IMG/VR virus record: IMGVR_UViG_3300010885_072825
Span: 32,001-96,000 of that record
Origin: a virus
Length of the DNA stretch: 64,000 bases
Reading direction: 5' to 3' (one strand)
Part shown: piece after piece, positions 15,906 through 64,000 of the stretch
Layout of the letters: every line of letters starts with the position of its first letter
Position numbering within the stretch: the stretch's first letter is position 1
The notes under the pieces: generated by a model
Database searches by the model: none
What the model saw: only the letters and a program-made list of their open reading frames with translations
Told to the model about the DNA's origin: nothing
Position numbers and translations under genes: made by a program

Positions 15906-18122
15906 TTATTTTCCTTCTTGAAACTCAAACTCTAACTTTTTATTCTGTTCAGTGATAGTAACTCGCCCTCCTGTTTTTAGCCGACCCCAAAGAATTTCCT
16001 TGGCCAGTGGCGTCTTAATATAAGTTTGTATGACTTTTGGCATGGGGCGTGCTCCCATCCGTGGATCAAACCCACGTTCAATTAGCCAGGCTCTAGCTGA
16101 CGCATCAACTGTGACATCAACTGATTTTCCTTGACTTAACTGATTCAATTGACCAATGAATTTATCAAGTATATGATCCATAGTTATTTTTGTCAATGGC
16201 TTAAATTCAACTTGCGCATCAAGTCGATTTCTAAATTCAGGTGTAAAGAATCGGTTGACTGCATCCGAACTCTTGTCTGAATTGTCTGATTCACCAAATC
16301 CAATTCTCATTTTTGCAACTTCTTGTGCTCCAAGATTGGTGGTATAAATCACATAACAATTTCTAAGAGAAACAGTTTCACCATCTGAGCTGGTAATGAC
16401 ACCATAATCCATGGCTTGTAGGAAAATGTTGCTGATGTCCGGATGTGCTTTTTCAATTTCATCAATTAACAAAACTGCATAGGGATACTTTTGTAGCTTG
16501 TTGATCAACATGCCAGATCCTGCTGCACCATCTGAATATCCCACATAACCGGGTGGGCTCCCAATCAATTTAGAAACTGTATGCTTTTCTTGATATTCAC
16601 TCATATCAAAACGAATTAATTCAATTGACAATTGATTGGCAAGTTCTTGGGCAAGCGCTGTCTTACCAGTTCCTGTGGGACCAGTAAACAAAAAAGAACC
16701 CAGTGTTTTTTCCGTTTCTCTGAGACCACTACTAGATATCAATACTGAATCAACTAGTTGATCTACTGCCATGTCTTGTCCAAAAATTTTGGATTTTATT
16801 TTATCATTTAATGTTTTCAGTTGTTCAGTGGGATCGGCTGTTTTTGTAATTTTTATTTTTGCAACTCGTTCGATTTCTTCCTCAATTAAAGTTCGATCAA
16901 TTTGTCGAACACGTTGATTTTTAGGCAACAGTTTTTGTTTTGCACCAACTGAATCTATTAAATCAATAGCTTTATCTGGTAAGAAACGATCAATGATGTA
17001 TCGACTACTTAGTTCAACTGCTGCGACCAATGCATCAGGAGTGTATTTTACTGAATGGAATTTTTCATAGTGTTTTGAAATTCCCATCAAAATAGCAATA
17101 GCATCAGTTTGACTGGGTTCCAGCACGTCTATTTTTTGAAAACGGCGCACCAATGCACGATCTTTTGCAAAATGTCTCTTGTATTCTTCTTGTGTGGTAC
17201 TACCAATTGTTTTAATTTCACCACGTCCCAAAGCTGGCTTCAAAATATTTGCAGCATCCATTGCTCCACCAGACGTACCAACCGCACCAGCTCCCATGAT
17301 CATATGAATTTCATCAATAAACAAAATTAATTTGGGATCAGCTGCAAAAATACCAATAAGCTGTTTTAGTCGTTCTTCAAAATCACCACGAAATTTGGTT
17401 CCAGCCAACATACTAGATAAATCCAAACTGTAGATAGTGTGATTTTTCAAGCAATCTGGCACTTGATCTCGCACGATCTTGGCTGCAAGTCCTTCAACTA
17501 TCACGGTTTTACCAACGCCTGGATCCCCGGCCATAATCACATTGTTTTTATTTTTTCGAGTCAGGACCTGGCAAATAGCAGAGATTTCAGTTTCTCGACC
17601 AATAACAGTGTCGATTTTATTAGCTTTTGCTTGTTCATTTAAATTGATACACCATTGATTTAAAATATCACGCGGTGATTGCCGATTCCTTGCACTGCCA
17701 AGATTTGCCAAATAATTGAATAGCTGTTGTAGATCTGGTCCAAACTCTTCAATGAAATAAGAAGCATGACTTTCTTCAATACCATATAGTGCAATAAACA
17801 TGTCAATATCAGTTGGATCAGATTTGCCATTTATCATGGCCTGTGCTTTGGCTTTTTTCAAAACATTGGCAACGCTTGGTGTATGCCGTGGATTGTAGGG
17901 TTCTGCGGCTGACATAATTTCGTGATTATTGGTATTATCTAGATAATGCAGCGTGTATTCAATCAGTGAGTCAAAATCACCATCTGTCAGTTCAATCATT
18001 TTTTGAATTGCTTCACTTTCAAGTAGTGAAGCTAAGACGTGCTCCAAAGTCACCAGTTCATGATAGCGTTGACTGGCCAGTTGATAACTTCTGATCAGTA
18101 CTTCTTGTATGGTCTTATTCAT
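15906..18122 (-). CDS. clpA: ClpA-like ATP-dependent Clp protease ATP-binding subunit
   Basis: Clp-N domain, GDPGVGKT and GPTGTGKT Walker A motifs, [20 protein letters not shown] ClpP-docking loop, no ClpB M-domain. Confidence 0.92.
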
Positions 18123-18616
18123 TAAAATTCCTTCTTCATCATTCGTTTGATGGCCATTTCAGCTTTGAGATTCGATACTCTATCTACCATACAAATCCCT
18201 TGTAAATGATCAAATTCATGCAGAAATATTCTACTCAACATTTCAGACAACTGAGATTGTCGTATTTCTCCTGTTCGATCTAGCCATTTGGCTTCAATCA
18301 GATGTGGACGGGTGATTTCCAATTCCATGTTGGGCAAGCTCAAACAGCCTTCTGCATAAACGCTGTATTCTTCACTCACACCAACAATTTCAGGATTAAT
18401 GAAAACGATGTAATTGGTATCATCAGGATCACCAGCTATAAAAAACGATTTGTTTATTCCCACCTGTGGTGCTGCTAGACCAACCCCACCAAACATTTGC
18501 ATTATTTGATGCATTTCATCAAACGTGGCTTGTAATTCAGCAATTTCAGTGTCTTCCACTGGCAATGTTGGTTGAGTTAGTATTGGGTCCCAGGGTTTGA
18601 CTAATTCCAGTGTCAT
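18122..18616 (-). CDS. def: peptide deformylase
   Basis: GVGLAAPQVG, EGCLS, HEFDHLQG motifs. Confidence 0.95.
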   Translation of the reverse strand: MTLELVKPWDPILTQPTLPVEDTEIAELQATFDEMHQIMQMFGGVGLAAPQVGINKSFFIAGDPDDTNYIVFINPEIVGVSEEYSVYAEGCLSLPNMELEITRPHLIEAKWLDRTGEIRQSQLSEMLSRIFLHEFDHLQGICMVDRVSNLKAEMAIKRMMKKEF

Positions 18617-19503
18617 GCATAGTTCCTGTTTATTGTCATTATTGATAGTAATTGTTTAGCAAGTTCTTGTTGTTCTTCAGTTAGATGTTTAACATTGGTA
18701 ATTTTAATGACCACTATCAAATCACCCATCAGTGTTTCATTGTGTCTGATGGGCATTCCTTTACCGCGTACCTTTAGATGATCATTTGCATTAATGCCAG
18801 CTGGGATCTTCAAATTAATAGTTGTTTTGTCCAAGCAGGCGAGTGTTACTTCATCTCCCACCAATGCTTGAATTGAATTAATGGTTATTTCTTTGAACAG
18901 GATTGATCGTTCGCGATGATACCCCTGCATATCACTAATGACAATTCTTACATATAGATCGCCCGGGGGTAAATTTGTGTGGGTCGTATCACCATGTCCC
19001 GCATATCTTATTTGTTCTCCGCTTTCAATACCAGATGGTACTCGTACTGTTAATTTTGTAGTTTGTCCCGAGGGCCTATCAAATGATATGTCCACAGATT
19101 TGCCTGTCAATGCATCTGACAAACTGATGTTTAATGTAAAGACCAGGTCTTGATTCTTGGGTGGAGGAGGTTTGAAACCAAAAAAGCTATCGAATTGATT
19201 TCCAAATGCACCACTTCCCATAAATTCTCGCAAAATATCTTCAGGGGTAACATGTGATTGGAATCCGCCGCCGAAATTGGAGAAGCCACCCCCTGCTCCA
19301 CCATACTTTAGCTGCTGGTCATACTGCGCTTTTTTCTGAGTATCTCCCAATATGTCATAGGCTTCTGCAACAGCTTTGAATTTGTCTTCAGTGTCTTTGT
19401 TGACATCCGGATGATATTTTTTTGCTAACTTTCGATAGCTGGATTTGATTTCTTCTGCGGTGGCTGTTTCAGAAAGCCCCAGTGTTTGATAGTGATTTGT
19501 CAT
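18613..19503 (-). CDS. DnaJ/CbpA-like co-chaperone (type II, no Zn finger)
   Basis: J-domain with HPD, G/F-rich linker, DnaJ C-terminal domains. Confidence 0.92.
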   Translation of the reverse strand: MTNHYQTLGLSETATAEEIKSSYRKLAKKYHPDVNKDTEDKFKAVAEAYDILGDTQKKAQYDQQLKYGGAGGGFSNFGGGFQSHVTPEDILREFMGSGAFGNQFDSFFGFKPPPPKNQDLVFTLNISLSDALTGKSVDISFDRPSGQTTKLTVRVPSGIESGEQIRYAGHGDTTHTNLPPGDLYVRIVISDMQGYHRERSILFKEITINSIQALVGDEVTLACLDKTTINLKIPAGINANDHLKVRGKGMPIRHNETLMGDLIVVIKITNVKHLTEEQQELAKQLLSIMTINRNYA

Positions 19504-20494: not shown

Positions 20495-21235
20495 ATGGAA
20501 CTAACTCAAACACAAGTAGATTTTCTAAGAACTACTCGACTACATTTTGCCATCCCCTGTTATGGTGGGCAGGTTTTTGAACCCTGCATGCTAAGTATGC
20601 TAAAATTTATGGCAACCGCAAATAGACTGGGGATGAATTTTACACTGGATACCATTTCCAACGAATCACTAGTACCACGTGCAAGAAATAGTTTGCAGGC
20701 CAAGTTCCTACAATTTGGAAGTGACCAAACTCCACCCATGCTAAGTACACACCTTATGTTTGTGGATTCTGATATCAGCTTTGAACCCGAAGAAGTAATC
20801 AAATTAATTTTGGCAAATAAAGATATTATCGGCGGTCTCTATCCCAAGAAATCATTGCCCATCAGTTACGTCGTTAACAAAGTACCAAATGCTCGTTCAG
20901 AAGGCAATTTGGTCCAAGTCCGAAACTTGGGCACGGGGTTTATGATGGTTAAACGTCATGTGATTGAAGCAATGATCAAACACTATCCGGAAACATTTTA
21001 TCAAGATGCTATTGGCCTTGATCCCAAGTATGATCCATTTAAATTCGCACTGTTTGATACATTGATTGATCCTGACACCAAAGAATATTTGTCAGAAGAT
21101 TATACATTCTGTAAACGTTGGACTGATATGGGCGGAGATATTTGGGCTGACTTGTCTATCAACTTGACTCACAATGGATTCTATTCATTCCGTGGCGATC
21201 CCGCATTGTTGATGTCTGGTTTAACTGAATCATAA
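20495..21235 (+). CDS. GT-A fold glycosyltransferase-like protein
   Basis: AIPCYGG, MFVDSDI (DxD), GTGFMMVKR, YLSEDYTFC. Confidence 0.75.
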   Translation: MELTQTQVDFLRTTRLHFAIPCYGGQVFEPCMLSMLKFMATANRLGMNFTLDTISNESLVPRARNSLQAKFLQFGSDQTPPMLSTHLMFVDSDISFEPEEVIKLILANKDIIGGLYPKKSLPISYVVNKVPNARSEGNLVQVRNLGTGFMMVKRHVIEAMIKHYPETFYQDAIGLDPKYDPFKFALFDTLIDPDTKEYLSEDYTFCKRWTDMGGDIWADLSINLTHNGFYSFRGDPALLMSGLTES

Positions 21236-21242
21236 AAACCAG

Positions 21243-21270
21243 TTGACATCAAACCTGATACTGCTAATAT
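21243..21270 (+). promoter_or_regulatory. sigma70-type promoter TTGACA-N16-TAATAT driving a non-coding region
   Basis: Canonical -35; TGC-TAATAT -10; no ORF downstream before the convergent gene end at 21496. Confidence 0.65.
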
Positions 21271-21278
21271 ATGGATAA

Positions 21279-21372
21279 CGGAAGCATTTGGCGATTTGGA
21301 GTTGAACTACTGACATGTTCAACAACTGCGGTCAGGCAGTCCAATAGAGTTCGATTCTCTAGCTTCTGTTCA
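21279..21372 (+). ncRNA. atypical tRNA-like RNA
   Basis: 7-bp acceptor-like stem CGGAAGC/GCTTCTG, T-arm TAGAG-TTCGATT-CTCTA, stemless D-loop with GG, central TTGGA/TCCAA helix enclosing two hairpins; ends T-TCA. Confidence 0.6.
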
Positions 21373-21375
21373 AAA

Positions 21376-21495
21376 TTGGTGACACACGGCCCTCAGATCT
21401 CGCCGTCTGATGTTTAGAATCGGTAGCTCAAGCTTTGAACTTGTTGGTGCTGATGCGACAGTGGTTTAAATGGAGAGATGAAAAGCTCCCCAGCC
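21376..21495 (+). ncRNA. possible second structured RNA domain
   Basis: GC-richer than flanks; interlocking ACGGC/GCCGT and TCAGA/TCTGA; ATCGGTA..TGCTGAT hairpin with plus-strand G-U pairs; GGAG/CTCC stem. Confidence 0.35.
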
Positions 21496-21978
21496 TTAGA
21501 ATTTGGTGACAACAAATATCAATAGACTGCCCCAAACAAATCCACGAGACAATTCTACTAGAGTGTTAGCCCATGTCTTATTAGGGTAGTATGTTACCAT
21601 GTAATTCAACCAAATTGCCAAACCGGTAGTAATTAAAGCAAACACAATGCCAGCTGCCAGCGTTTGAATCAAACTGACTGATACAAACACAGCAATCACC
21701 AAACTTGCTAATATCAAACAGTGTCGGAAAAAAGTTCCTACAATCTGTTTACTATTATTTGGAGTCATCGTACCACCAAACAATGACCAACCTGTGGATC
21801 GCCAGACGATCCATCCCAAACTAATCAATCCAACTGGCCAACCTGCTATCAAAACAGATAATATCACTAATGGCAAAAACGCCCAATATATGGGTCTACC
21901 ACGGAAACTAGATTTCCACCCCAGGCCACCACCACACCATCGATCAGCTAACATAAAAATTATTGGTAATGCAAACAT
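21496..21978 (-). CDS. multi-pass membrane protein
   Basis: Four to five hydrophobic segments. Confidence 0.7.
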   Translation of the reverse strand: MFALPIIFMLADRWCGGGLGWKSSFRGRPIYWAFLPLVILSVLIAGWPVGLISLGWIVWRSTGWSLFGGTMTPNNSKQIVGTFFRHCLILASLVIAVFVSVSLIQTLAAGIVFALITTGLAIWLNYMVTYYPNKTWANTLVELSRGFVWGSLLIFVVTKF

Positions 21979-21987
21979 GAATGGTCC

Positions 21988-23112
21988 TTAGAAAAATATG
22001 CTGATTCGAACTTTGGCGCCAATAACAGTACCCGTATTGGAAGGGGTTAATCCAGTAACGACAAAGGTATTTGGTTGACTGATATCATATGCAATGAAAC
22101 ATGAATTTGATTCTGAAATACCAGTCCAACGTGTGGAATTGATAGCTTGCTGTCCCCACAAGAACATGCCTTGTGGCAAACCCAATCCAGTATAAGTGAC
22201 CGTCACAGTACTTCCAGATACAACCGTTTGCCAACCTGAAGGCACCCCAGTAACAGAATTGATTGTACCATCCATATTATAAACAACCGTAAAATTATAT
22301 ATAGTGTTTAGTCCCTGTGGACCAGTAGCTCCAGTTGAGCCTTGTATTCCTGTTGGACCAGTCAACCCCATGGGCCCTGTTATCTGTGAAGCTGCTCCGA
22401 CTGGTCCAGTTGGTCCTGTGGGACCTCCATTAGGACCAGTTGGTCCTGTTACAGTTGATTGTGCACCAGTTACTCCAGTAGGTCCAGTTGAGCCTTGTAT
22501 TCCTGTTGGACCAGTTACGGTCGACGCTGCACCAGTAGAACCTGTTACTCCGGTAGGTCCAGTTGATCCAACAATACCAGTTGGACCAGTCGGTCCATCG
22601 GGACCCATGCTTGGCCCAGTTGGTCCTGTTATTTGAAGGCCGCCTCCAAGTGAGGTGAACCCACCTGCAACCCCACCAACTGTACCATAATTCAATAATA
22701 TCTGAGTAATAGATCCTATATAAGCAGGATCCAGTGGTTGATTGCTCAAATAAGATCGATCTATGCGGGCGCGTACCCAGATAAAATTTCCAGAAAAACT
22801 ATAAGTGGCAATGCCCGTATCACCCAAATCTCCACTAGTGGGATTTGCAGGATCTTTGGGAAATTGTTGATAGGGCAACAAATCCAATGTTAAAGGGATT
22901 GGAAACCAATCAGCCGCTTGTGGATCAGTTGCAAGTGATCCGTCAATATACAACCGACCTACGAAGTTGGCCAAATAGGCGCTTATTGTGTGATTGTTGC
23001 CAACTGTATTTGTGTAACCAGCTCCGGGTGTTTTTGGACCAGTCACATTTACGGGAGTCGGTGATCCAGAAGGATTGGTAGTCGTACTACTTAAAAGAAT
23101 GACACTGTGCAT
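21988..23112 (-). CDS. collagen-like (GPT-repeat) virion fibre protein
   Basis: About 100 aa of Gly-X-Thr triplets between N- and C-terminal beta domains; TAAATA 4 nt from ATG. Confidence 0.8.
22330..22515. repeat. 33-bp direct repeat within collagen region
   Basis: tccagttgagccttgtattcctgttggaccagt at 22330-22362 and 22483-22515. Confidence 0.8.
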
Positions 23113-38355: not shown

Positions 38356-39240
38356 TTATCCAGCGATCAATTTCATTTCCATAGTTGGATTTTTCACATA
38401 TTTTAACGCTTCAGGATTTTGACAAATAGCTTGATATTGTACTTCTCGTCGTGCTCTGGACTTGAAATGCCCTAATAGGAGGCCATCTTTTTTGACTGCC
38501 GCTAATTGATATTCATATTTGTGAGGATTACCTAACTCCAAAACAACACTTGGTTGAAGGTCAATTGCTAGATACACTAGTTCATCACTGGGATTGTTGA
38601 TGGATCTTATTACACTAGGGGTTGTTCGTATTGCTGTTTCCAACAATTCTGGGAAATGCAATTTGTCTGGAATAGAACGTATTGCATATCCCGACGTTTT
38701 CACAGCTCGCATCAAAAGATCTCGGGTCACGAATTTGGATTTGGATATATCATATATGGTAGAATAACTTTCATCTATACATTCTTCCAAAAGTGACTTT
38801 GGTGGATTTGGCATTTCTAAAACTAGATCCACAACACCACTAGGCCATCGTTTGATTCCCAATGACATTATTTCTTCACTGACGTCAGTGAAGAATTTAA
38901 AGATGTTTGGTGATTTAGAAGAAATGATAGCTGTCTTTTGAAATTCAGTATCTGCTGAATATTCTTGAAACAGTTCTATCAAATTGGCGTCAATGCTCAA
39001 CGCCAGTAACTTGACTTCTCGACTAGTACTATGATCAGCAATATGTTTTTCCCAAAATTCTCTTAGGGGCCTTGTATACCGAGAGTCATACCACGTGTTA
39101 CTTTTTTGTTTTTCATAAAAACAATTGATAGCCATCCTTTGTAGAGTTTCTGTTTGTGGTTCAAGAAATCGAATCAAACTGGGATCTGACTTGATCATCT
39201 CCTCAATCTTGTCTAAAGAAAGAGTTACTTGTTCACTCAT
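38356..39240 (-). CDS. helical-repeat (DUF4116-like) protein
   Basis: QLAAVKKDGLLL, QYQAICQNPEALKYVKNPT, AVKTSGYAIRSIP repeats. Confidence 0.7.
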   Translation of the reverse strand: MSEQVTLSLDKIEEMIKSDPSLIRFLEPQTETLQRMAINCFYEKQKSNTWYDSRYTRPLREFWEKHIADHSTSREVKLLALSIDANLIELFQEYSADTEFQKTAIISSKSPNIFKFFTDVSEEIMSLGIKRWPSGVVDLVLEMPNPPKSLLEECIDESYSTIYDISKSKFVTRDLLMRAVKTSGYAIRSIPDKLHFPELLETAIRTTPSVIRSINNPSDELVYLAIDLQPSVVLELGNPHKYEYQLAAVKKDGLLLGHFKSRARREVQYQAICQNPEALKYVKNPTMEMKLIAG

Positions 39241-40430
39241 GCATCACCATCCCAAGAATAATTCCAAGTCACTCGATTATTCCACAGGCTTCGTGCCTTG
39301 TCAACCCTGTTCTGAGTAGACAAACTCTTCACAATACGATCAATAACTTGTTCTCGAATCGACTTGCCATCTGCGGCTGCAAACATGATGCCAGCTGCCC
39401 ATGAATCAGTTAGACCAGGCACAACTTCAACCGCGAATTTCTTGCGTTCTGAGCCACACTGTTCAACAAATACGGTGTTAAACATGTTTTGATAACGTTC
39501 AACAGTTTCAGCAACCCCCTGCCAAAAACCAGTTTCGAACTTTTCCAGACGCTGTCGTTCTTCATCTGGCAACATGGATTTGATATCATCAGTTGCTGAA
39601 TTTAGAATCAAGTCAATCACGTTCTTTTCCTGTGACAAGCTATCTCGTGCTTTGTGAATACGTACATAGTCAGCTGCCTTAATCTTTGCCATATGACCGG
39701 TATCAAAGCGAAGCACCCAGCCTTCTTGACCGATGATTGGGCGAGTGGTTTCAACCAGCTCATGAATATCGTCAACTGATCCTGGTCGCTCTTGAACAAC
39801 ATCAAGCTCCCAATTGACAAATTCTTCAAGTGGCAGATAGTCACCCGTTACATTATCTCGAACGGCAAGCAGCACCAAGCGATCAACCGGATAGTCGATC
39901 ACGATTCGTTGCTTTCGGCTACAAAACTCAAAAACTGGCGTCCAGTGATTCCGAATCATCAAATCACAAAATTCCCGATAGTTCTTTCGAGTTTGAACCC
40001 ACTCCTGAGCCATTTGAGCAATATCTGTATCACCCATCTTTGTGGCCATTGTCCAATCACCGGTGGGCAAGACCAGTGGACGCACAAAAGAACCATCCAG
40101 CTTTTCCAAAATTTTATGTGGCCGACCAAGATCAATCAAATGCGGTTGACAATCATCATTTTCACCAATATTTTTGAATTTGTGCAGGGGGCGGCTGATA
40201 ATGCGCCGTTCGTTGTTAAACAGAATTCCGCGACATTCACGCCGAATTGCCCAGTTGCGGGCCGTCTTTGAATCTGGCGCAGTGGTGGGATCAGGAAACG
40301 TATCAGAAAAGTTAACCATATAATTTACAACGTGACCCCAGTCACGACGAGCCACGATAAATTCATCTCGACCTTCAATCGCAGGAAGCACATCGGAAAG
40401 AAATTCAATGCGTGGAAAATCATAAAACAT
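39237..40430 (-). CDS. RNA ligase 1 (T4 RnlA-like)
   Basis: RECRGILF, SRPLHKFKN, EKLDGS, FEF, EGWVL, KIKAADY. Confidence 0.9.
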   Translation of the reverse strand: MFYDFPRIEFLSDVLPAIEGRDEFIVARRDWGHVVNYMVNFSDTFPDPTTAPDSKTARNWAIRRECRGILFNNERRIISRPLHKFKNIGENDDCQPHLIDLGRPHKILEKLDGSFVRPLVLPTGDWTMATKMGDTDIAQMAQEWVQTRKNYREFCDLMIRNHWTPVFEFCSRKQRIVIDYPVDRLVLLAVRDNVTGDYLPLEEFVNWELDVVQERPGSVDDIHELVETTRPIIGQEGWVLRFDTGHMAKIKAADYVRIHKARDSLSQEKNVIDLILNSATDDIKSMLPDEERQRLEKFETGFWQGVAETVERYQNMFNTVFVEQCGSERKKFAVEVVPGLTDSWAAGIMFAAADGKSIREQVIDRIVKSLSTQNRVDKARSLWNNRVTWNYSWDGDA

Positions 40431-40499: not shown

Positions 40500-40988
40500 A
40501 TGACAACTGCTGAAATCCGAAAAATAATGACTGATTTAGAAACCATTGATTCTGTGGAAAATTCAGTTGATCAAGTTTCTACAGCATTGACAGATTTCAT
40601 TTCAGTTGGACGACCCTTATTAGAGTCATCTGAAATTGATTATGAAGAATTAAGCAAAAAATTTGTTCGATATGTTATGCGTGGATTGAAATTGACTGAC
40701 ATACCACGCATTGAATTCATTACTAAAAAAAGGGTAGAAACCCAACAACCATCGTTTGGTTCATTCAATCCAAATGACAATTCTATTGTGGTCAGCTGTT
40801 TGAATCGTCATCCGGTTGACGTGTTTAGAACTTTGGCACATGAATTGATTCACTACAAACAAAATATTGCCGGTGAACTGAGTACTGATTCTGGTTCAAC
40901 GGGCAGTCGACATGAAAATGAAGCAAATGCCGGGGCTGGTATTATAATGCGAAACTTTGCTAAAAAATACCCCGGCTACTTTAATTGA
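40500..40988 (+). CDS. EIRK-leader protein with zincin metallopeptidase domain
   Basis: MTTAEIRKIMTDLE, PLLE|S, LAHELIHYKQ (HExxH), ENEAN; TAAATA 5 nt from ATG. Confidence 0.75.
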   Translation: MTTAEIRKIMTDLETIDSVENSVDQVSTALTDFISVGRPLLESSEIDYEELSKKFVRYVMRGLKLTDIPRIEFITKKRVETQQPSFGSFNPNDNSIVVSCLNRHPVDVFRTLAHELIHYKQNIAGELSTDSGSTGSRHENEANAGAGIIMRNFAKKYPGYFN

Positions 40989-41448
40989 ACATTATTTTTC
41001 GTTCTAATTCTAATTCTGGGTTCAAATAATACCAACGAGCAATTAATTGCTCGTTGGTACTGCCGTCAGTATATAATTCCAATCTTTTTGATTCCGCATC
41101 AAAGTATTTTGCATGTAGTTTTCCATTCATGCTAGCATAAATTAAAGACAGTCGCTTTTTGTTGTGCATGTCTACTAGTACAACGAGGTGATTTTTATGC
41201 AGCAACCAATAAAAAATTGTTTCGACAAATTGTATAATGTGGATTCGCCATCCCAGAACAGGTATATTGATCATGGTGACTATGATTATAAATGATACCA
41301 AAACAATAGCTGATGTAGAAAAAAGTATCAAAGTTTCGACTACGCTCAAATGATTAATCTTAGATGTCCATAATATGAAATTCTCAAACGCCATCATGAT
41401 TATGAAGGGTGTTAAAAATTTAAAAATGCCAAATATAACACCCTTCAT
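40981..41448 (-). CDS. membrane protein
   Basis: Two N-terminal TM segments. Confidence 0.6.
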   Translation of the reverse strand: MKGVIFGIFKFLTPFIIMMAFENFILWTSKINHLSVVETLILFSTSAIVLVSFIIIVTMINIPVLGWRIHIIQFVETIFYWLLHKNHLVVLVDMHNKKRLSLIYASMNGKLHAKYFDAESKRLELYTDGSTNEQLIARWYYLNPELELERKIMFN

Positions 41449-41459
41449 AGATTTTAATC

Positions 41460-42623
41460 CTACTGTAGTTCAGTTCCGCCCTTGCGGGTAAGGTACGCTG
41501 GACTCACCATTTTGAGAATTGGACGCAGGGCGTGCTTTTCATCTGCCATTCGCTTGTCTTGCACCCCAGTGGAGGTGATAACAATACCTTCTCGGATATT
41601 ACCACCACCCATTAGTGTCACACCATCGCGAAGTTGGGTTAGGATGTCAAGATCCCAAGGACCACGGTAAAGAACAGGCGGACGTTCAATACCAATTGCA
41701 GCAAAGTTGGCAATTTTGCGATCAGTATCCATGTAGAACATATTGTCGTTAAACAGCACAGCCATATCAAATGCTCGGAAGATGGGCTTTTGTGAACCAT
41801 AGTGTAGGTCTTGAACTCCTCGGCCAAACACTTCTCCCATGATATGCACCTGTGCGCCCGCAAACGTCCGATCACAGTGCGCAATCATTCGTTCAATAAA
41901 ACCACTTTCCAGCACAGTTCGAACATAGAGATTGTATTGAATATTTTCCTCTACGTTCTTGAATACCAGGCCTTTGGCTCCCAGTCCTTTGCTGGCAATC
42001 ACAGCATCACCATTTGCAAATGCTTCAGGATTGTTTAGTCCAGGGAGGTAACTGATGCGACAAAAGGTCCCATGAATTTTCTCAAGCACTTCCACTTCAT
42101 CATTCACAAGGAATTCTGGGTAGTTTTGCCAATTTTCGATGTCATATGAAAACTGTGCTTTATGACAAGCAAACAGTTGTCCGGACATTGATGACGGAAT
42201 GGGTTCTTCATATTTTTGAATACCAAAGAACTCAACCACATTGTCATATACTGCAACATCTTGCTGAGTTTGATTGGGATGTTCAATCCAATGACGGTCG
42301 CCATCTGTTTTGACTTTCCAAACCAGGCCCTGTGAAACAACCCCTCTGAGCCGAATTGCTCGGACACGATTACCCTGACTTCCGGACAGCATGCCCTGTC
42401 CATTCTCATTGCAGTAGCCTCGATCTTTGAGAACGTCTAGTGGGATAACTGCATTTTCCGGAACATAAACAATCAGTTCACCTGCGGCAAATCGATGATT
42501 GCCGTTTTCGTCCTTATTGGTGATTGCTTCGTATCCCCGAATTTTGCAGATCGAAAGGCGGTCAGCACCCGGATGATCATAGACTGAATCGATTGGGAGT
42601 ACCAGTACTTCAAACGTGCTCAT
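41460..42623 (-). CDS. RNA ligase, DRB0094 family
   Basis: N-terminal OB domain HPGADRL, LRGVVSQGL, EKIHGT, GEVFG, FRAFD, REGIVI, LKMVSPAYL. Confidence 0.9.
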   Translation of the reverse strand: MSTFEVLVLPIDSVYDHPGADRLSICKIRGYEAITNKDENGNHRFAAGELIVYVPENAVIPLDVLKDRGYCNENGQGMLSGSQGNRVRAIRLRGVVSQGLVWKVKTDGDRHWIEHPNQTQQDVAVYDNVVEFFGIQKYEEPIPSSMSGQLFACHKAQFSYDIENWQNYPEFLVNDEVEVLEKIHGTFCRISYLPGLNNPEAFANGDAVIASKGLGAKGLVFKNVEENIQYNLYVRTVLESGFIERMIAHCDRTFAGAQVHIMGEVFGRGVQDLHYGSQKPIFRAFDMAVLFNDNMFYMDTDRKIANFAAIGIERPPVLYRGPWDLDILTQLRDGVTLMGGGNIREGIVITSTGVQDKRMADEKHALRPILKMVSPAYLTRKGGTELQ

Positions 42624-53243: not shown

Positions 53244-53867
53244 TCAAATCTGAGGAAATAATATTTGAGTCATGAAAGTTTTAGCAGACTGTTCACCAAT
53301 AATATTTTTCAATGCTCGGAATGTATGTTCATTCTGACGTTGTTTTTCACAATATCTATTTTGACCAATAGTAATTTCAGCAACATCACCTAATTCAGTT
53401 TGTAAAGTAGTCAAATAAGCGGTCAACACTCGCTTAGCTTCGTCTGCTATTAACCGCATTTCTGCTTCATCTGGGCGTGCTGCTATCCAGTGATCACTGA
53501 ATATATCGCCCCATGCTGGTCGTTCACGTTGTTTGACAATTGCAATGTCACTGAATGGTTTGAGTGGTTTGCTATTTGTTGGACTCAAATCTAAGAACAC
53601 ACCAGTGACTTTATTCTCACCCGCAATTACATCAAAGCCAAAGATGGGTGCTGTGTCATTAGCACGTGGAAAAACACAACAGTGAACTACCATAAATCTG
53701 TCTTGGTTGAAAATTTCAATATGTGCTAGACGAAATCGATCACTTGAATATCTATAATTTTCCCAACCCCAGTCTTCAGTTGGTATTTCGGTCAAATTAG
53801 ACTGACTTAATATTATTGCGTGTAATTCTCGAGCCAGGTTATCTAGAAAATGAATATAGTTCATCAT
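53244..53867 (-). CDS. ferredoxin-dependent bilin reductase (PcyA/PcyX family)
   Basis: FRLAHIE, VVHCCVFP, PIFGFD, DLSP, R.RPAWGDIFS, NRYC..QRQN.HT; follows heme oxygenase. Confidence 0.85.
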   Translation of the reverse strand: MMNYIHFLDNLARELHAIILSQSNLTEIPTEDWGWENYRYSSDRFRLAHIEIFNQDRFMVVHCCVFPRANDTAPIFGFDVIAGENKVTGVFLDLSPTNSKPLKPFSDIAIVKQRERPAWGDIFSDHWIAARPDEAEMRLIADEAKRVLTAYLTTLQTELGDVAEITIGQNRYCEKQRQNEHTFRALKNIIGEQSAKTFMTQILFPQI

Positions 53868-54351
53868 AAATCTTTATTATCCATTCGAATGATTTGATTG
53901 CTAGATCGGGATCTATATGTTTGGTATTGTTTCTAATAAAATCAATGGTTCCTGCTCTATCAATATAAGTCAAATAATTCAATTTGATTGGTTGTCGATC
54001 AGCAATAATAGAACCTCCGTAGAGATCTCCCAAATAATGCACATAAATAGGCGCCCAAATATCTTGGTCAGATAAAGTATTCAACCAAGAAATATATGCT
54101 TGAGCGGTTTTTGTTATTTTGCCTGGTGACTTTAGTGTTAATAAATCTTGTGAAATTAAATTCGATCTCATGAGTTCTGTATCGGCAAATAAATCACGTG
54201 CTTCAAAATGACTGTAGATCAAAATTAAATTGTAGAGATGATTGGACCATTCTGTTTTTGTAAGTTCGCCAGCAATCATTAGTTGACTCCAAGCAGTTTT
54301 TTCTGCTTGATGGTGAATATCAGATATAACGTCTTTTATTGATAGTGTCAT
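53839..54351 (-). CDS. heme oxygenase
   Basis: Proximal His in DIHHQAE; distal YVHYLGDLYGGSII helix. Confidence 0.88.
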   Translation of the reverse strand: MTLSIKDVISDIHHQAEKTAWSQLMIAGELTKTEWSNHLYNLILIYSHFEARDLFADTELMRSNLISQDLLTLKSPGKITKTAQAYISWLNTLSDQDIWAPIYVHYLGDLYGGSIIADRQPIKLNYLTYIDRAGTIDFIRNNTKHIDPDLAIKSFEWIIKIYDELYSFSR

Positions 54352-55619: not shown

Positions 55620-56123
55620 CTACAGTTTGTCAAATTGCCAATCTTCAGCACGAACCACCAAATCAAACCCTTCTTCGACAGTAGGCGGTTGATAGGTCGT
55701 TGCCATGTTTTTCAGGATATGGCCGGGAATGGTTTTACCAAGCCGGGAATCCAGTACTTGTTGCCAAACAGTGTCTTCCAATGCTGGAAACACTAACGCG
55801 ATCTTAAAATAAGTCGCAGGAATTTTCGACAACTTGGATCGTCTAGCTTTGGCAGATAAATTGGTTTGGTCCCAAAGGATTAGACTTTGATTCTTAACCG
55901 CGTTTTGTAATTTTTCTTCTGCTAGCTGAGTCGCGGTTTTGATATATTCTTCAAACACTGCATCATAAGTCGTGTTTTGTTTGCGAGCATAGATATCAAT
56001 GAACTTGTCAGTTGAAATGAGTGCAATGTCAGAGAATCGATTAGCTAGAGACTGTTCCAACTTCTTGAAAAACGTAGACTTGCCCGTTCCTGGAAGTCCC
56101 ACTGCCATAATCATCAAGTTCAT
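55620..56123 (-). CDS. P-loop kinase (PNK kinase-domain / AAA_33-like)
   Basis: GLPGTGKST, ISTD, WDQTNL...R, PTVEEGFD. Confidence 0.8.
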   Translation of the reverse strand: MNLMIMAVGLPGTGKSTFFKKLEQSLANRFSDIALISTDKFIDIYARKQNTTYDAVFEEYIKTATQLAEEKLQNAVKNQSLILWDQTNLSAKARRSKLSKIPATYFKIALVFPALEDTVWQQVLDSRLGKTIPGHILKNMATTYQPPTVEEGFDLVVRAEDWQFDKL

Positions 56124-56794: not shown

Positions 56795-57355
56795 TCAACT
56801 GTTTTTCACATACCCTCTGAAAGTCAAAGAGATTCTAGCTCCGCAAATGAAACTGGCCTTGGGAATGCGATGCAAATGGGTATCTTGCATTCCAGCATGC
56901 ATCAAACACAAACTGCCATGTGGCAACTTGACTTTGGTGATATTTTCAGGACTATTGTCTGCACCAATTTCCTTGAACCAAATTTCTCGTTCTACTCCCA
57001 AACTAATGATGCCAATTGGTCGAGCATCATCCATCTCAGGACTGTTGTCCGAGTGCCATCCCAATTGATCCTTTTGATCCAAATAGCGATTCAAGAAACA
57101 AACTTCGAACACTGCTCCAGTGTGTGCTTCCAATGATTGACGAATCGTCAAAATTTCTGGGTGCCAGGGTTGAACTTGATAGGCACGTCCATGTTCAGGA
57201 GTACCATAGAAATAAGGCTCAGGAAAATCATTGCAGTAGTATTCGCTACGCGGCGTGTTAGAGATCCTTACCCAATCCAATTCCTGATTCAACACAGCAA
57301 AAGAATCCGATGGGTTGGTAATAAAGTCGGGGATCAATGTGATAGGTACGGTCAT
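56795..57355 (-). CDS. alkB: AlkB-family 2OG-Fe(II) dioxygenase (ALKBH2/3-like)
   Basis: NRY...DQLGWHSD, ISLG..R, HGSL..M....Q..HLH, RISLTFR. Confidence 0.9.
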   Translation of the reverse strand: MTVPITLIPDFITNPSDSFAVLNQELDWVRISNTPRSEYYCNDFPEPYFYGTPEHGRAYQVQPWHPEILTIRQSLEAHTGAVFEVCFLNRYLDQKDQLGWHSDNSPEMDDARPIGIISLGVEREIWFKEIGADNSPENITKVKLPHGSLCLMHAGMQDTHLHRIPKASFICGARISLTFRGYVKNS

Positions 57356-60979: not shown

Positions 60980-61561
60980 GTGTCTATTGAAGAAATTAGA
61001 AAACTTATTGATTTATTAGAATCTGTTGATCAACATCAAGTACTTGGTGAGTCTATTTGGCCAAGTGCGGAAAAACGTACTGCTAAAGAACTTAAAAGGG
61101 ATGAAGCCAAGCGAAGAAAGCTAACTCCAACAGTAGATGAACAAGCACAGGATTTGTTACCAGCTGTAAAAAAAGCATTTAATTATGTGGTAAATGGTGG
61201 AAATAGGCCAGACGGGGTTTATATTCGTATAGAAGAAAATAAAAAAATATCATTTAAACTCAGTGGTGATTATATTACATCTTATGCAACGCCATTTAAT
61301 ATATTATTATGCACCAAACGAAATAATATGTTGGGGTGGGATGCAGATAATAATAAGTTATACTTGTTTGAATACAAAAATATCGGTACGTCTAAGACCC
61401 CAATATTCATACCACACACCAGATATGTGGATTTTAAATTTCCCGGAGAATATAATCCGCAGTTACCAGGGGATGTCAAAAAGGCATCCGCTATTTTGAA
61501 GACATTATGTGATTCTCCTGAATACAAGGATTTCACAAAATATTATACATATTTCAGCTAG
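60980..61561 (+). CDS. EIRK-leader protein, unknown payload
   Basis: MSIEEIRKLIDLLE|S..VLGE|S; TAAATA 60951-60956; GGAG RBS, GTG start. Confidence 0.7.
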   Translation: MSIEEIRKLIDLLESVDQHQVLGESIWPSAEKRTAKELKRDEAKRRKLTPTVDEQAQDLLPAVKKAFNYVVNGGNRPDGVYIRIEENKKISFKLSGDYITSYATPFNILLCTKRNNMLGWDADNNKLYLFEYKNIGTSKTPIFIPHTRYVDFKFPGEYNPQLPGDVKKASAILKTLCDSPEYKDFTKYYTYFS

Positions 61562-62385
61562 CGAAACAACCAAGCAACTTTTTCATCAATCGACCAGGTT
61601 CTAAATTCAGGGCAGGGAGCACTTTTGATCACATGTCGATCAAACAAAGTATCTGGTGAGGGTCGATGTGCGGCCGGGATGCCATCAAGTTCTTTGTTAG
61701 TCAGAGGGTGTTGAACCAAGTATCGACGTACCCAAGTGCCGTGGACAAATGCAGCCGGAAACGAATCAATCAGATGGTCAAGCTCAGCCAACCGTTGTCG
61801 CATTTCTTGACTGTTTTGCCCTTGCAAACTCTTATGGGAAAAATAATGATGGGCTGCCATACTGGTGGAATTTTTCTCACAATCCAATACCCTCCAAAGC
61901 ATGGCATTGGCTGCTTCAGTTTGTGAGGGCAGAGAAAAAACCCTGGCATCAAAATGCGGAATATATTCTTGCAGTGCCTGAACTCGACCGTGATAATCGT
62001 CACTAGCATCTATTGAATGCATGAATTTAGAACTGGCCATACCAGACAGTACACTAGACATCTTAGTGACTTTGCCTGAAAACCAATCAGGTTTAGCCCA
62101 AACTAAACTGATTTCATCGCTTTGAGTGAATCCTGCCAGTGCATGGGTTTGCTCCACAAGGTACTCGGTGGTCTTGACCATGCATGCATGAAAATTGACA
62201 TCAAATGGTCGTTCTAAATTTTTGGTTAGTTTGGAAAAACTGCGCCCATCTATCCTAGCATACACGGGTAGATCTTCAGGCAATCGAATCTCAGTGTACA
62301 CTGATTCTAATTCCTTCATTCGATCACCCAGCTCGTCTTTGGATACAGAAACCAAAGGTTTACGATCTTCGTCTAAGAATGTCAT
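61558..62385 (-). CDS. Thg1-like tRNA(His) guanylyltransferase / 3'-5' polymerase
   Basis: RMKELE, RIDGRSFS, QSDEISL, FDARVF, WR..D..KNS. Confidence 0.88.
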   Translation of the reverse strand: MTFLDEDRKPLVSVSKDELGDRMKELESVYTEIRLPEDLPVYARIDGRSFSKLTKNLERPFDVNFHACMVKTTEYLVEQTHALAGFTQSDEISLVWAKPDWFSGKVTKMSSVLSGMASSKFMHSIDASDDYHGRVQALQEYIPHFDARVFSLPSQTEAANAMLWRVLDCEKNSTSMAAHHYFSHKSLQGQNSQEMRQRLAELDHLIDSFPAAFVHGTWVRRYLVQHPLTNKELDGIPAAHRPSPDTLFDRHVIKSAPCPEFRTWSIDEKVAWLFR

Positions 62386-62952: not shown

Positions 62953-63068
62953 TATCGGTCTCCTTCGATGCGATTCAAAATTTCAGTACCGATCCAATAC
63001 ACGCAGACTACCATTACAAATGCTACCTCTCCGGTTGCAAGTGCATCAAATAAAGACTCTGTTGTCAT
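62952..63068 (-). CDS. 38-aa TM peptide MTTESLFDALATGEVAFVMVVCVYWIGTEILNRIEGDR
   Basis: AGGA RBS; TAATG coupling to next gene. Confidence 0.55.
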   Translation of the reverse strand: MTTESLFDALATGEVAFVMVVCVYWIGTEILNRIEGDR

Positions 63069-63091
63069 TTGAAATATTTCCTGTGAGTTAA

Positions 63092-63120
63092 AATGATGCA
63101 GAGGTTATCTCTGCATCATT
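63092..63120 (-). terminator. terminator-like hairpin
   Basis: AATGATGCAGAG-N-CTCTGCATCATTTT. Confidence 0.65.
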
Positions 63121-63130
63121 CATAATCAAA

Positions 63131-64000
63131 TTATGCCGTTTGCAATGCGTTAGTAAACGCATATTCCAATTTACTAGCTATTTCAGATTCTGTCAAGACC
63201 TGTCGAATGCTAGTGCCTTCAGCAATCTTAATAGTAGCTGTGATAATAGCAGGCAGGTCTTTATGATCCTTCATCCTAATCACATTTGGCCCCAACAGTT
63301 CAGTCCAGTTTGCAACCACTAGCCCTGGGTTAGAACGAGCATAGCTACCTTGTTCAGCAACAATATGGAACACATTGTATTTTTGTTGAACCAATTCCAA
63401 CAGTTCGGCATTTGAATAAACTAGATGTTGTCCTTCTGTACCAAACACCGATTTCAATTGACTGGCCGTAAGAGGTTTAGGTGCCATTTCGTCACCGATA
63501 GTAAAGATGTAACCTTTTTTGCCACGTTTTTCGAGACAATCAATTGCAGTCTTAGTAAGAGCAAAATACCACGGTAGGTTATAAGATTCAGTGTTGTTTC
63601 CACCACCACCGCTTTCAATCCACATGGTGCGCAATTGTCCAATCAATGGGATTGCTCCTGCTTCAAACTGTGAAACTTGCAAAGGTGCTGAGTCTGAATA
63701 CACATCACCGATGCCCATAAACATTAGGTGAGGGTCAGTAACAGGACGTTGATCATAGATAGAATTCATGATCTCAGGTAGTTGTGTTTTGGCAATTTCA
63801 TGTGCCACAAATCCCATGCTACCAGTTACATCCAATCCAATGATAATGGATGTGGACATCGGATTAGCGTCTGAGTCTCTGGATTCACGAATTGTGATCT
63901 TGCGTGGATCCAATGCTTGTGGCATGTTGCGACTAGTAAACACTTCATGCTGAGATTTAGTTCCCAGCCCATGCGTGCTTGAATAAGTTCTATAAGTAGT
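63131..64000 (-). CDS. vWA-domain protein (start beyond window edge)
   Basis: LDVTGSMG (MIDAS), IGD, GGGGNNTESY, FTIGDE; frame stays open to the window end. Confidence 0.8.
   Translation of the reverse strand, partial: TTYRTYSSTHGLGTKSQHEVFTSRNMPQALDPRKITIRESRDSDANPMSTSIIIGLDVTGSMGFVAHEIAKTQLPEIMNSIYDQRPVTDPHLMFMGIGDVYSDSAPLQVSQFEAGAIPLIGQLRTMWIESGGGGNNTESYNLPWYFALTKTAIDCLEKRGKKGYIFTIGDEMAPKPLTASQLKSVFGTEGQHLVYSNAELLELVQQKYNVFHIVAEQGSYARSNPGLVVANWTELLGPNVIRMKDHKDLPAIITATIKIAEGTSIRQVLTESEIASKLEYAFTNALQTA

Follow-up and report, generated by a model that had tools for sequence, protein, structure and literature searches.

Between two convergent genes of a freshwater phage lies a short stretch of DNA in which a promoter is followed by a sequence resembling the upper half of a tRNA. 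The question raised by this locus is whether the element is a gene for a functional RNA and, if so, which kind of RNA it encodes. The window analyzed in the present study is a 64-kb stretch comprising bases 32001-96000 of a 139.6-kb viral record. The completeness of this record is estimated at approximately 35%, and the phage is therefore considered huge. Several host-like genes, including those encoding ClpB, DnaJ and peptide deformylase, are carried by this phage. The genes in the window include a T4-type terminase, an Rnl1-type RNA ligase, a second RNA ligase and a PNKP phosphatase, together with a Thg1-like enzyme, an AlkB-like oxygenase and a bilin reductase with haem oxygenase. The Thg1 and ligase genes are located 18-40 kb from the tRNA-shaped RNA, and no link between these genes and the RNA was seen.

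The element is situated in the 260-nt spacer separating the two convergent genes. It stands alone, outside any tRNA cluster, and ARAGORN detected 0 tRNA or tmRNA genes in the 64-kb window; the lone genuine tRNA of the whole record, a tRNA-Met, lies outside the window. The features of the locus are as follows.

20495-21235, + strand: phrog_1574 gene, the left neighbor of the tRNA-shaped RNA
21243..21270, + strand: sigma-70-type promoter (TTGACA at 21243-48, 16-nt spacer, TAATAT at 21265-70)
21271..21417, + strand: mechanical 48-aa open reading frame, not a gene, overlapping the tRNA-shaped RNA
21278..21372, + strand: tRNA-shaped RNA of approximately 92 nt (core 21279-21368; tail T(73)-TCA at 21369-72)
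21496-21978, - strand: 160-aa gene without an assigned function, the convergent right neighbor

Results

Architecture of the RNA

The RNA is composed of the following parts, all on the + strand.

21279..21285: 5' strand of the acceptor stem, CGGAAGC, pairing with GCTTCTG at 21362-21368
21286..21295: single-stranded 10-nt linker ATTTGGCGAT in the D-arm position, as given by the fold
21296..21299 with 21341-44: helix X, TTGG/CCAA, enclosing both hairpins and invariant in the relative described below
21301..21323: hairpin 1, with a 7-bp stem and the 9-nt loop TACTGACAT; kissing strand CTGAC at 21310-14
21325..21340: hairpin 2, resembling a variable arm, with a 5-bp stem and the loop GGTCAG; kissing strand GTCAG at 21331-35
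21345..21361: T arm, TAGAG/TTCGATT/CTCTA, with the canonical G53, T54, T55, C56, A58 and C61

An earlier note, made from the letters of this DNA, had described an acceptor stem, a T arm, a helix enclosing two hairpins with complementary loops, and a T-TCA tail. All of these parts were recovered in place, and the minimum free energy structure predicted using RNAfold corresponded exactly to this architecture (-30.1 kcal/mol, z -2.57). Only 2 of 200 shuffled sequences folded as well as the window RNA, and the - strand folded worse than the + strand (-24.2 vs -30.1 kcal/mol). The acceptor stem comprises 7 bp with one G.U wobble (G21280.T21367) and extends to 8 bp through A21278:T21369, with a ninth pair in this genome only. 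Helix X comprises 4-5 bp, the longer form being TTGG(A)/(T)CCAA (21296-300 with 21340-44). The complementarity between CTGAC (21310-14) and GTCAG (21331-35) amounts to five possible Watson-Crick pairs between the two loops (CUGAC:GUCAG), and at least five such pairs were obtained in 50 of 5000 comparisons between random 9-nt and 6-nt loops (1%). A D stem and a 7-nt anticodon loop are absent from the window RNA, the two hairpin loops being 9 and 6 nt.

A strict composite of acceptor stem and T arm was observed at 2 places in the 139.6-kb record, the window RNA and the tRNA-Met. The same composite, for which the criteria were chosen after the sequence was seen, was obtained in 1 of 150 Markov simulations. 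Simulated genomes contained 0.5 copies of a looser composite on average, which is therefore not rare.

Comparison with tRNA, tmRNA and Y RNA

The earlier note had read the RNA as something other than a decoding tRNA, and the detectors agree with this view, as neither ARAGORN nor Rfam returned a confident match to a canonical tRNA or to an RNA family. A malformed "tRNA-?(Ser|Val)", in which the anticodon has 2 bases, was obtained only when the ARAGORN thresholds were lowered to 80%. This model contains three G.U pairs in its "D stem" and a mismatched anticodon stem, and it competes with a perfect 7-bp hairpin. The tmRNA search of ARAGORN (-m) found nothing, even at -ps70. In Rfam, 0 matches at the gathering score and 1 chance miRNA match at E<=10 were observed, and the Rfam tRNA model RF00005, applied to the whole record at E<=10, matched the tRNA-Met only, leaving the window RNA unmatched. 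Of the features of a canonical tRNA, the 7-bp acceptor stem with a 5-bp T stem, the TTCRANY motif and the G53-C61 pair are all present in the window RNA, while a full cloverleaf recognized by tRNA models is missing.

The tRNA-like domain of tmRNA consists, in order, of an acceptor stem, an unpaired D-loop-like linker, a helix, and a T arm placed directly after the returning strand of that helix. The window RNA has its parts in the same order. However, a tmRNA was rejected: the element has no tag reading frame or pseudoknots, only 39 nt are located inside the helix, and neither ARAGORN nor Rfam produced a match. The G:U pair of tmRNA also lies at 3:70, whereas the G.U pair of the window RNA lies at 2:71 in the 7-bp register. 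A Y RNA or YrlA was rejected as well, with no Rfam match at E<=10 and an acceptor stem formed by the RNA's own ends; in Y RNA and YrlA, the ends instead form a stem that contains the tRNA-like module. The tmRNA and Y RNA offered for comparison in the earlier note are not the closest known RNAs, and a better fit is provided by RNAC of phage T4, as described below.

Conservation in a related lineage

The RNA was found in one other lineage only, hereafter called the relative. Pattern and protein scans of IMG/VR detected it there alone, in two overlapping contigs from one metagenome (L001 and L023), and a pattern scan of metagenomes yielded 17 loci, 1 of which had the RNA (L051). The RNA sequence of this further metagenome contig is identical to that of L023, and the comparison therefore rests on two sequence variants, the window and L023/L051. 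None of the 8 loci obtained in a pattern scan of genome contigs had the RNA. A relaxed IMG/VR pattern matched at least 119 loci; among those listed, none combined a full T stem (5/5) with a full acceptor stem (7/7), and the weaker matches sit in apparent coding regions. In a blastn search against 50,697 phage records, no match was obtained for 1.7 kb, and the spacer gave one chance 40-nt match. A covariance model of the window RNA did not match any of 4 related phage records, one of which is complete (518 kb). In addition, a third lineage (run X3), approximately 92% identical, was collinear over 20500-21999, with 121 differences and 0 gaps, and contigs from three further DNA runs did not reach across the RNA.

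Between the window RNA and the relative, 93 of 96 bases are identical. The differences are at 21290 (G>A), 21293 (G>A) and 21370, and the stretch 21294-21369 is unchanged. Identity in the flanks is 84.6% (left, 3.3 kb) and 86.7% (right, 3.2 kb), and the adjacent gene encodes a protein that is 97% identical, with 77.7% identity at third codon positions. Against the coding background, the binomial probability of 3 differences in 96 positions is 3.8e-4. Because only 3 of 96 positions differ, compared with 13-15% in the flanks and 22% at third codon positions, the element is, as judged from these two variants, under strong purifying selection. All three substitutions fall at unpaired positions, an outcome with a chance of approximately 0.06 by simple arithmetic; this agrees with the fold without proving it.

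Two of the three substitutions (21290 and 21293) are located in the 10-nt linker. This linker had been described as a stemless D-loop with GG; it is unpaired as described, but the GG is not conserved and reads AG in the relative. The description of the RNA as free of reading frames also holds only in part, as a 48-aa frame spans the stretch. This frame was rejected as a gene, and it is destroyed in the relative, where the ATG is missing, codon 7 is changed from TGG to TAG, and the terminal stop is lost.

Promoter and predicted start of transcription

The promoter TTGACA-N16-TAATAT, previously claimed upstream of the RNA, is present and was also identified in a promoter scan, with 10 of 12 matches and a TG at 21262-63 before the -10 element. 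In the record, 24 sites of the form TTGACA-N16-18-TAnnnT were observed, compared with 9.9 +/- 3.1 in simulated sequences, and TGn precedes the -10 element at 7 of the 9 record sites with a 16-nt spacer, including this promoter. By this motif, the promoter belongs to an enriched class of the phage's own promoters. Using the usual distance of 6-8 nt from the -10 element, the start of transcription is predicted at approximately 21277-21278, which is where the extended acceptor stem begins. A search for RNA-seq runs containing the element sequence found none.

The relative keeps the -35 element and a weaker -10 element, and an A+T-rich insert of approximately 330 nt precedes the RNA. This insert was found to contain neither an open reading frame >30 aa nor a tRNA, and it is not repeated in this genome. 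As the insert lies between promoter and RNA, the RNA of the relative would be cut from a longer precursor.

Resemblance to T4 RNAC

The covariance model of the window RNA was applied to the tRNA region of phage T4 (AF158101), in which rnaC lies at 70908-71046. The best match was rnaC (species 1 RNA), with 26.9 bits, and the tRNAs of T4 and T5 scored <=17.8 bits. However, the model was aligned to an internal ACGGAACG of T4 and not to the true 5' end of RNAC, and diverged RNAC homologues scored 8.4-16.2 bits. The reciprocal RNAC model gave 14.4 bits for the window RNA (E 0.07, rank 3 of 24 in the window); two unrelated hairpins in the window scored higher, and ordinary tRNAs reach 14.7 bits. The covariance models do not prove homology between RNAC and the window RNA. 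The relation therefore rests on a shared design and on the loop pair rather than on similarity statistics.

The RNAC set comprises 11 homologues (10 distinct) from T4-like phages. The consensus has a 7-bp acceptor stem, a long arm, a 10-bp hairpin before the T arm, and U73 followed by ACA. In the acceptor stem, columns 2-8 pair with columns 133-139, with covariation at 4:137. The apical loop UUGACG is the exact reverse complement of CGUCAA, the loop of the second hairpin. All 6 loop-loop pairs are retained throughout (100% of cells paired), and 2 pairs change on both sides, giving UUGAUG/CAUCAA in one phage and UUGGCG/CGCCAA in another. This count is independent of the alignment model because the loops were not pairs in that model.

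Several parts of the design are common to RNAC and the window RNA. First, an acceptor stem is formed from both ends, with C1-G72, G2 and G3, followed by U73. Second, a canonical T arm lies beside the 3' acceptor strand. Third, a hairpin with a 6-nt xGUCAx loop is located 5' of the T arm, and this loop is complementary to a UGAC loop. In the window RNA, the loops GGTCAG and TACTGACAT carry GUCA and UGAC, respectively, with a flanking C-G pair where T4 has U-A; two loops of such lengths would contain both 4-mers with a chance of approximately 3e-4 by simple arithmetic. A D arm and an anticodon loop are lacking in both RNAs, and both are missed by the tRNA model and Rfam. The tail reads ACA in T4 RNAC and UCA in the window, whereas the relative has GUACA, like T4.

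The two RNAs also differ in several respects. RNAC is 139-142 nt long, with an irregular arm of approximately 25 bp, a 10-bp variable-arm hairpin and a four-way junction, whereas the window RNA is approximately 92 nt and, unlike RNAC, places hairpins of 7 bp and 5 bp within an extra helix of 4-5 bp that is preceded by a 10-nt linker. The long arm of RNAC (columns 9-80, closed by AGG/CCU) is not present in the window RNA. Moreover, RNAC is co-transcribed within a tRNA cluster, whereas the window RNA is a solitary element with a promoter of its own.

Knowledge of RNAC dates back to the 1970s, and reviews and omics papers assign it no function (PMC3014915, PMC9697503). According to PMC2330249, it is cut from a long tRNA-cluster transcript. 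A literature search, which left out the RNAC work of the 1970s-80s, found no paper on the structure of RNAC. In Rfam, no family exists for T4 RNAC. The earlier note, in which the element was not recognized as a named family, was fair in this respect, although a known kind of RNA does exist.

Other phage RNAs were considered. T4 RNAD was rejected, as it has no tRNA-like frame. RNA1 and RNA2 of phage T5 (AY543070, 30501-30644 and 32959-33083) are likewise non-decoding, tRNA-shaped stable RNAs with an acceptor stem and a T arm. Their predicted folds keep a hairpin in the D-arm position, whereas the window RNA has no D stem, and both lie in the tRNA region, unlike the window RNA. From a reading of its sequence, RNA1 is without the UGAC/GUCA loop pair. 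Kinship with these RNAs was rejected, with a score of 8.9 bits for RNA1 under the covariance model of the window RNA, below those of the T5 tRNAs (9.1-17.8 bits), and no match for RNA2 at E<=1.

The downstream block and a possible role in processing

Two further features are located between the RNA and the 160-aa gene.

21373..21495, + strand: conserved non-coding block, with 6 differences in 123 nt, almost as conserved as the RNA
21471..21492, - strand: hairpin with an A/T-rich tail, just past the stop codon of the 160-aa gene

The entire intergenic block 21273-21500 is conserved, beyond the RNA itself, and the functional unit may thus be larger than the RNA. A possible + strand hairpin with two G.U pairs is present at 21419-21454, inside the downstream block, but the folds of this block are not significant (z 0.81 and 0.13). 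In the relative, 21451 T>C changes a G.U pair to G-C; the pair closing the loop is disrupted by 21432 G>A, and 21428 is located in a bulge. These folds lend no support to a second tRNA-like unit, or to a larger structured RNA, within 21373-21498. The hairpin at 21471..21492, with a G.U pair that is valid on the - strand only, is probably the terminator of the 160-aa gene.

In t-elements and mascRNA-type signals, a tRNA-shaped fold recruits tRNA-end enzymes and defines transcript ends, acting as a cis signal within longer transcripts of organelles or eukaryotes. Signals of this kind are the subject of PMC1920247. The element might similarly be a processing handle, the fold of which guides RNase P and the 3' tRNA-end enzymes, with the tRNA-like piece as a by-product. 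Such a handle would set the 3' end of the upstream mRNA (20495-21235) or give the downstream block (21373-~21470), once freed, a fixed 5' end. Conservation of the next 123 nt, which comes close to that of the RNA, would favor this explanation, but these bases form no significant fold. No intrinsic terminator was found on the + strand 3' of the tRNA-shaped RNA, as a processing handle would also favor. The RNA of the relative, approximately 330 nt from its promoter, would have to be processed from a precursor, as is T4 RNAC (PMC2330249). In the window, however, the promoter is dedicated to the element and the predicted start coincides with the first base of the stem, so that nothing upstream would need to be cut off. 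A cutting signal would also not require a fully conserved two-hairpin body with complementary loops, and 0 changes were observed in 21294-21369. In these respects, the dedicated promoter at the stem and a body conserved beyond the needs of a signal, the window RNA is unlike t-elements and mascRNA. A processing handle is therefore considered unlikely, although it is more probable than the alternatives described below.

A tRNA-Pro-type upper half

A pattern combining the acceptor strand and the T loop matched 4 places, namely the relative and three phage tRNA-Pro(UGG) genes (L078, L080 and L081), indicating that the upper half of the window RNA is of the tRNA-Pro type. These three genes are normal 74-75-nt cloverleafs recognized by ARAGORN. 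CGGAAGC and TTCGATT are identical to those of the window RNA, and the 3' strand, GCTTCCG, differs by one base. The G2-C71 pair of the phage tRNA-Pro corresponds to G2.U71 in the window RNA, and the base after G72 is A in the former and U in the latter. In the window RNA, the D arm, the anticodon arm and the variable loop of tRNA-Pro have been replaced.

The match to three phage tRNA-Pro(UGG) genes in CGGAAGC and TTCGATT could point to a decayed or rearranged tRNA-Pro gene, i.e. a functionless pseudo-tRNA. TTTGG occurs twice in the linker, comparable to the Pro anticodon loop TTTGGGG, and the tRNA detectors reject the element. Nevertheless, the element is conserved far above neutral sites, all of its helices are intact, its promoter is of the phage's own class, and its loop pair matches that of RNAC, making functionless decay very improbable.

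An unusual working tRNA, charged for use on the ribosome or for another aminoacyl transfer, with the 9-nt loop as an expanded anticodon loop, is also hardly credible. The acceptor/T-arm minihelix alone is enough for several tRNA enzymes, and CUGACAU within the 9-nt loop resembles a 7-nt anticodon loop with GAC. However, the D stem is missing, the loops are 9 and 6 nt instead of 7 nt, and no variable region is present between helix X and the T stem. RF00005 gave no match at E<=10, and by the rules of tRNA identity U73 is presumably a discriminator unsuited to a Pro-type stem.

A DNA-level element, such as a protein-binding, replication or packaging site with an incidental RNA fold, would agree with conservation across the whole 225-nt spacer and with the breakage of two assemblies of the relative just upstream, but it is highly unlikely given that the strict tRNA-like composite arose in 1/150 simulations, that the acceptor G.U pair works only as + strand RNA, and that the - strand folds worse. 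The pseudo-tRNA-Pro, the odd working tRNA and the DNA-level site are all less likely than the processing handle.

Discussion

In the present study, a tRNA-shaped element behind a promoter of a huge freshwater phage has been examined as a candidate RNA gene. From its sequence and predicted fold, the element is rather likely to be a gene for a stable, non-decoding, tRNA-shaped RNA of the T4 RNAC kind, in a compact form of approximately 92 nt. The earlier proposal that the element is a tRNA mimic which does not decode, is driven by a promoter and carries a loop-loop pair is consistent with the negative results of the detectors, the purifying selection, the class of the promoter and the covariation in RNAC. 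The earlier note also offered a decoy for anticodon nucleases or a substrate of Thg1 and the ligases as possible functions, but the Thg1 and ligase genes are 18-40 kb distant from the RNA.

Herein, we propose how such an RNA might be produced and act. First, transcription in this genome would begin either with the acceptor stem itself or 1-2 nt ahead of it. Second, the acceptor/T-arm minihelix would be a substrate for RNase P, 3' trimming, CCA addition and T-loop modification; the action of the host tRNA-end enzymes on this minihelix would, as proposed, make the RNA stable. Third, the loop-loop pair would hold both hairpins together as a rigid lower body, giving a tRNA-like shape with no anticodon. 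Finally, and speculatively, the RNA might act in trans by occupying a protein that reads the shape of tRNA, with no role in translation. Candidate targets would be enzymes of tRNA processing or repair and, on the host side, a tRNA nuclease or sensor.

What the present study adds is the loop-loop covariation in the RNAC family, as read from the alignment, and the recurrence of this predicted pair in a distant phage. The loop-loop pairing provides a concrete structural hypothesis for RNAC, backed by two compensatory changes in T4-like phages. If the window RNA is of the same kind as RNAC, then a smaller version, consisting of a handle and two kissing hairpins, would narrow which parts of the molecule matter. 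In addition, standard annotation with tRNA detectors and Rfam silently misses such genes in huge-phage genomes.

More tentatively, RNAC-like RNAs may constitute one old and widespread family, extending from T4-type coliphages to huge freshwater phages, in which arms locked by UGAC:GUCA are set on the upper half of a tRNA and of which the 92-nt RNA might be near the minimal core. If this family reading is true, species 1 RNA would be a rigid, anticodon-less tRNA body that captures a host or phage protein reading the shape of tRNA.

Sequences flanking the RNA and a promoter class

First, in the only other lineage found to carry the tRNA-shaped RNA, a ~330-nt A+T-rich insert (L001:3275-3522 with L023:3203-3307, - strand, corresponding to window 21268-21273) separates the conserved TTGACA promoter from the RNA. 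No ORF longer than 30 aa was observed in this insert, which shows mild structure (z -2.16). L001 and L023, both IMG/VR contigs, share an overlap of ~48 nt inside the insert region, and a third assembly, metagenome contig L051, stops ~126 nt 5' of the RNA, seemingly inside the same insert. Second, the non-coding block 3' of the RNA (window 21373-21495) is ~95% identical to this relative, with 6 differences in 123 nt, and possibly contains a hairpin:
21419-21454, + strand, candidate hairpin whose loop has 7 nt (CTTTGAA) and whose stem includes two G.U pairs
Among the substitutions at this candidate hairpin, one strengthens a base pair, another disrupts the pair that closes the loop, and a third falls in a bulge. 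Third, a promoter class of this phage was TTGACA-N13-TGn-TAnnnT, with the spacer fixed at 16 nt:
57998, 58325, 59642 and 60922, - strand, promoter sites
28009, + strand, promoter site
102375 (window-relative numbering), promoter site outside the window
The TTGACA-N16-18-TAnnnT sites were enriched (24 observed vs 9.9 expected).

RNA-related and auxiliary genes

Six RNA repair and modification genes were observed in the window, encoding a PNKP phosphatase, an Rnl1-type ligase, a second RNA ligase, a P-loop kinase, an AlkB-like oxygenase and a Thg1-like enzyme:
125-598, 39237-40430, 41460-42623, 55620-56123, 56795-57355 and 61558-62385, the RNA repair and modification set
The 139.6-kb record (G000:C1) contains a single canonical tRNA, tRNA-Met, outside the window at G000:C1:12358-12432. 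Host-like auxiliary genes for a ClpB-type ATPase, peptide deformylase, DnaJ, ferredoxin-dependent bilin reductase and haem oxygenase were also present:
15906-19503 and 53244-54351, host-like auxiliary genes

Comparison with T4 species 1 RNA

Two other window segments, 40980-41080 (+) and 63036-63147 (+), scored 15.9 and 15.0 bits with the covariance model of the T4 species 1 RNA (rnaC) family, slightly above the RNA; both have long hairpins (~10 bp), which are probably terminator-like. Within the family itself, T4 rnaC (L072:1907-2047) was aligned with its homologues (alignment A4; n=11, 10 distinct), and covariation was observed in the acceptor stem, built from both RNA ends. The loops UUGACG and CGUCAA are exactly complementary in the 11 homologues (10 distinct) and co-vary twice, as UUGAUG/CAUCAA in fHe-Yen9-01 and UUGGCG/CGCCAA in PWKp16, and this complementarity and covariation are evidence for a kissing-loop lock in T4 species 1 RNA.
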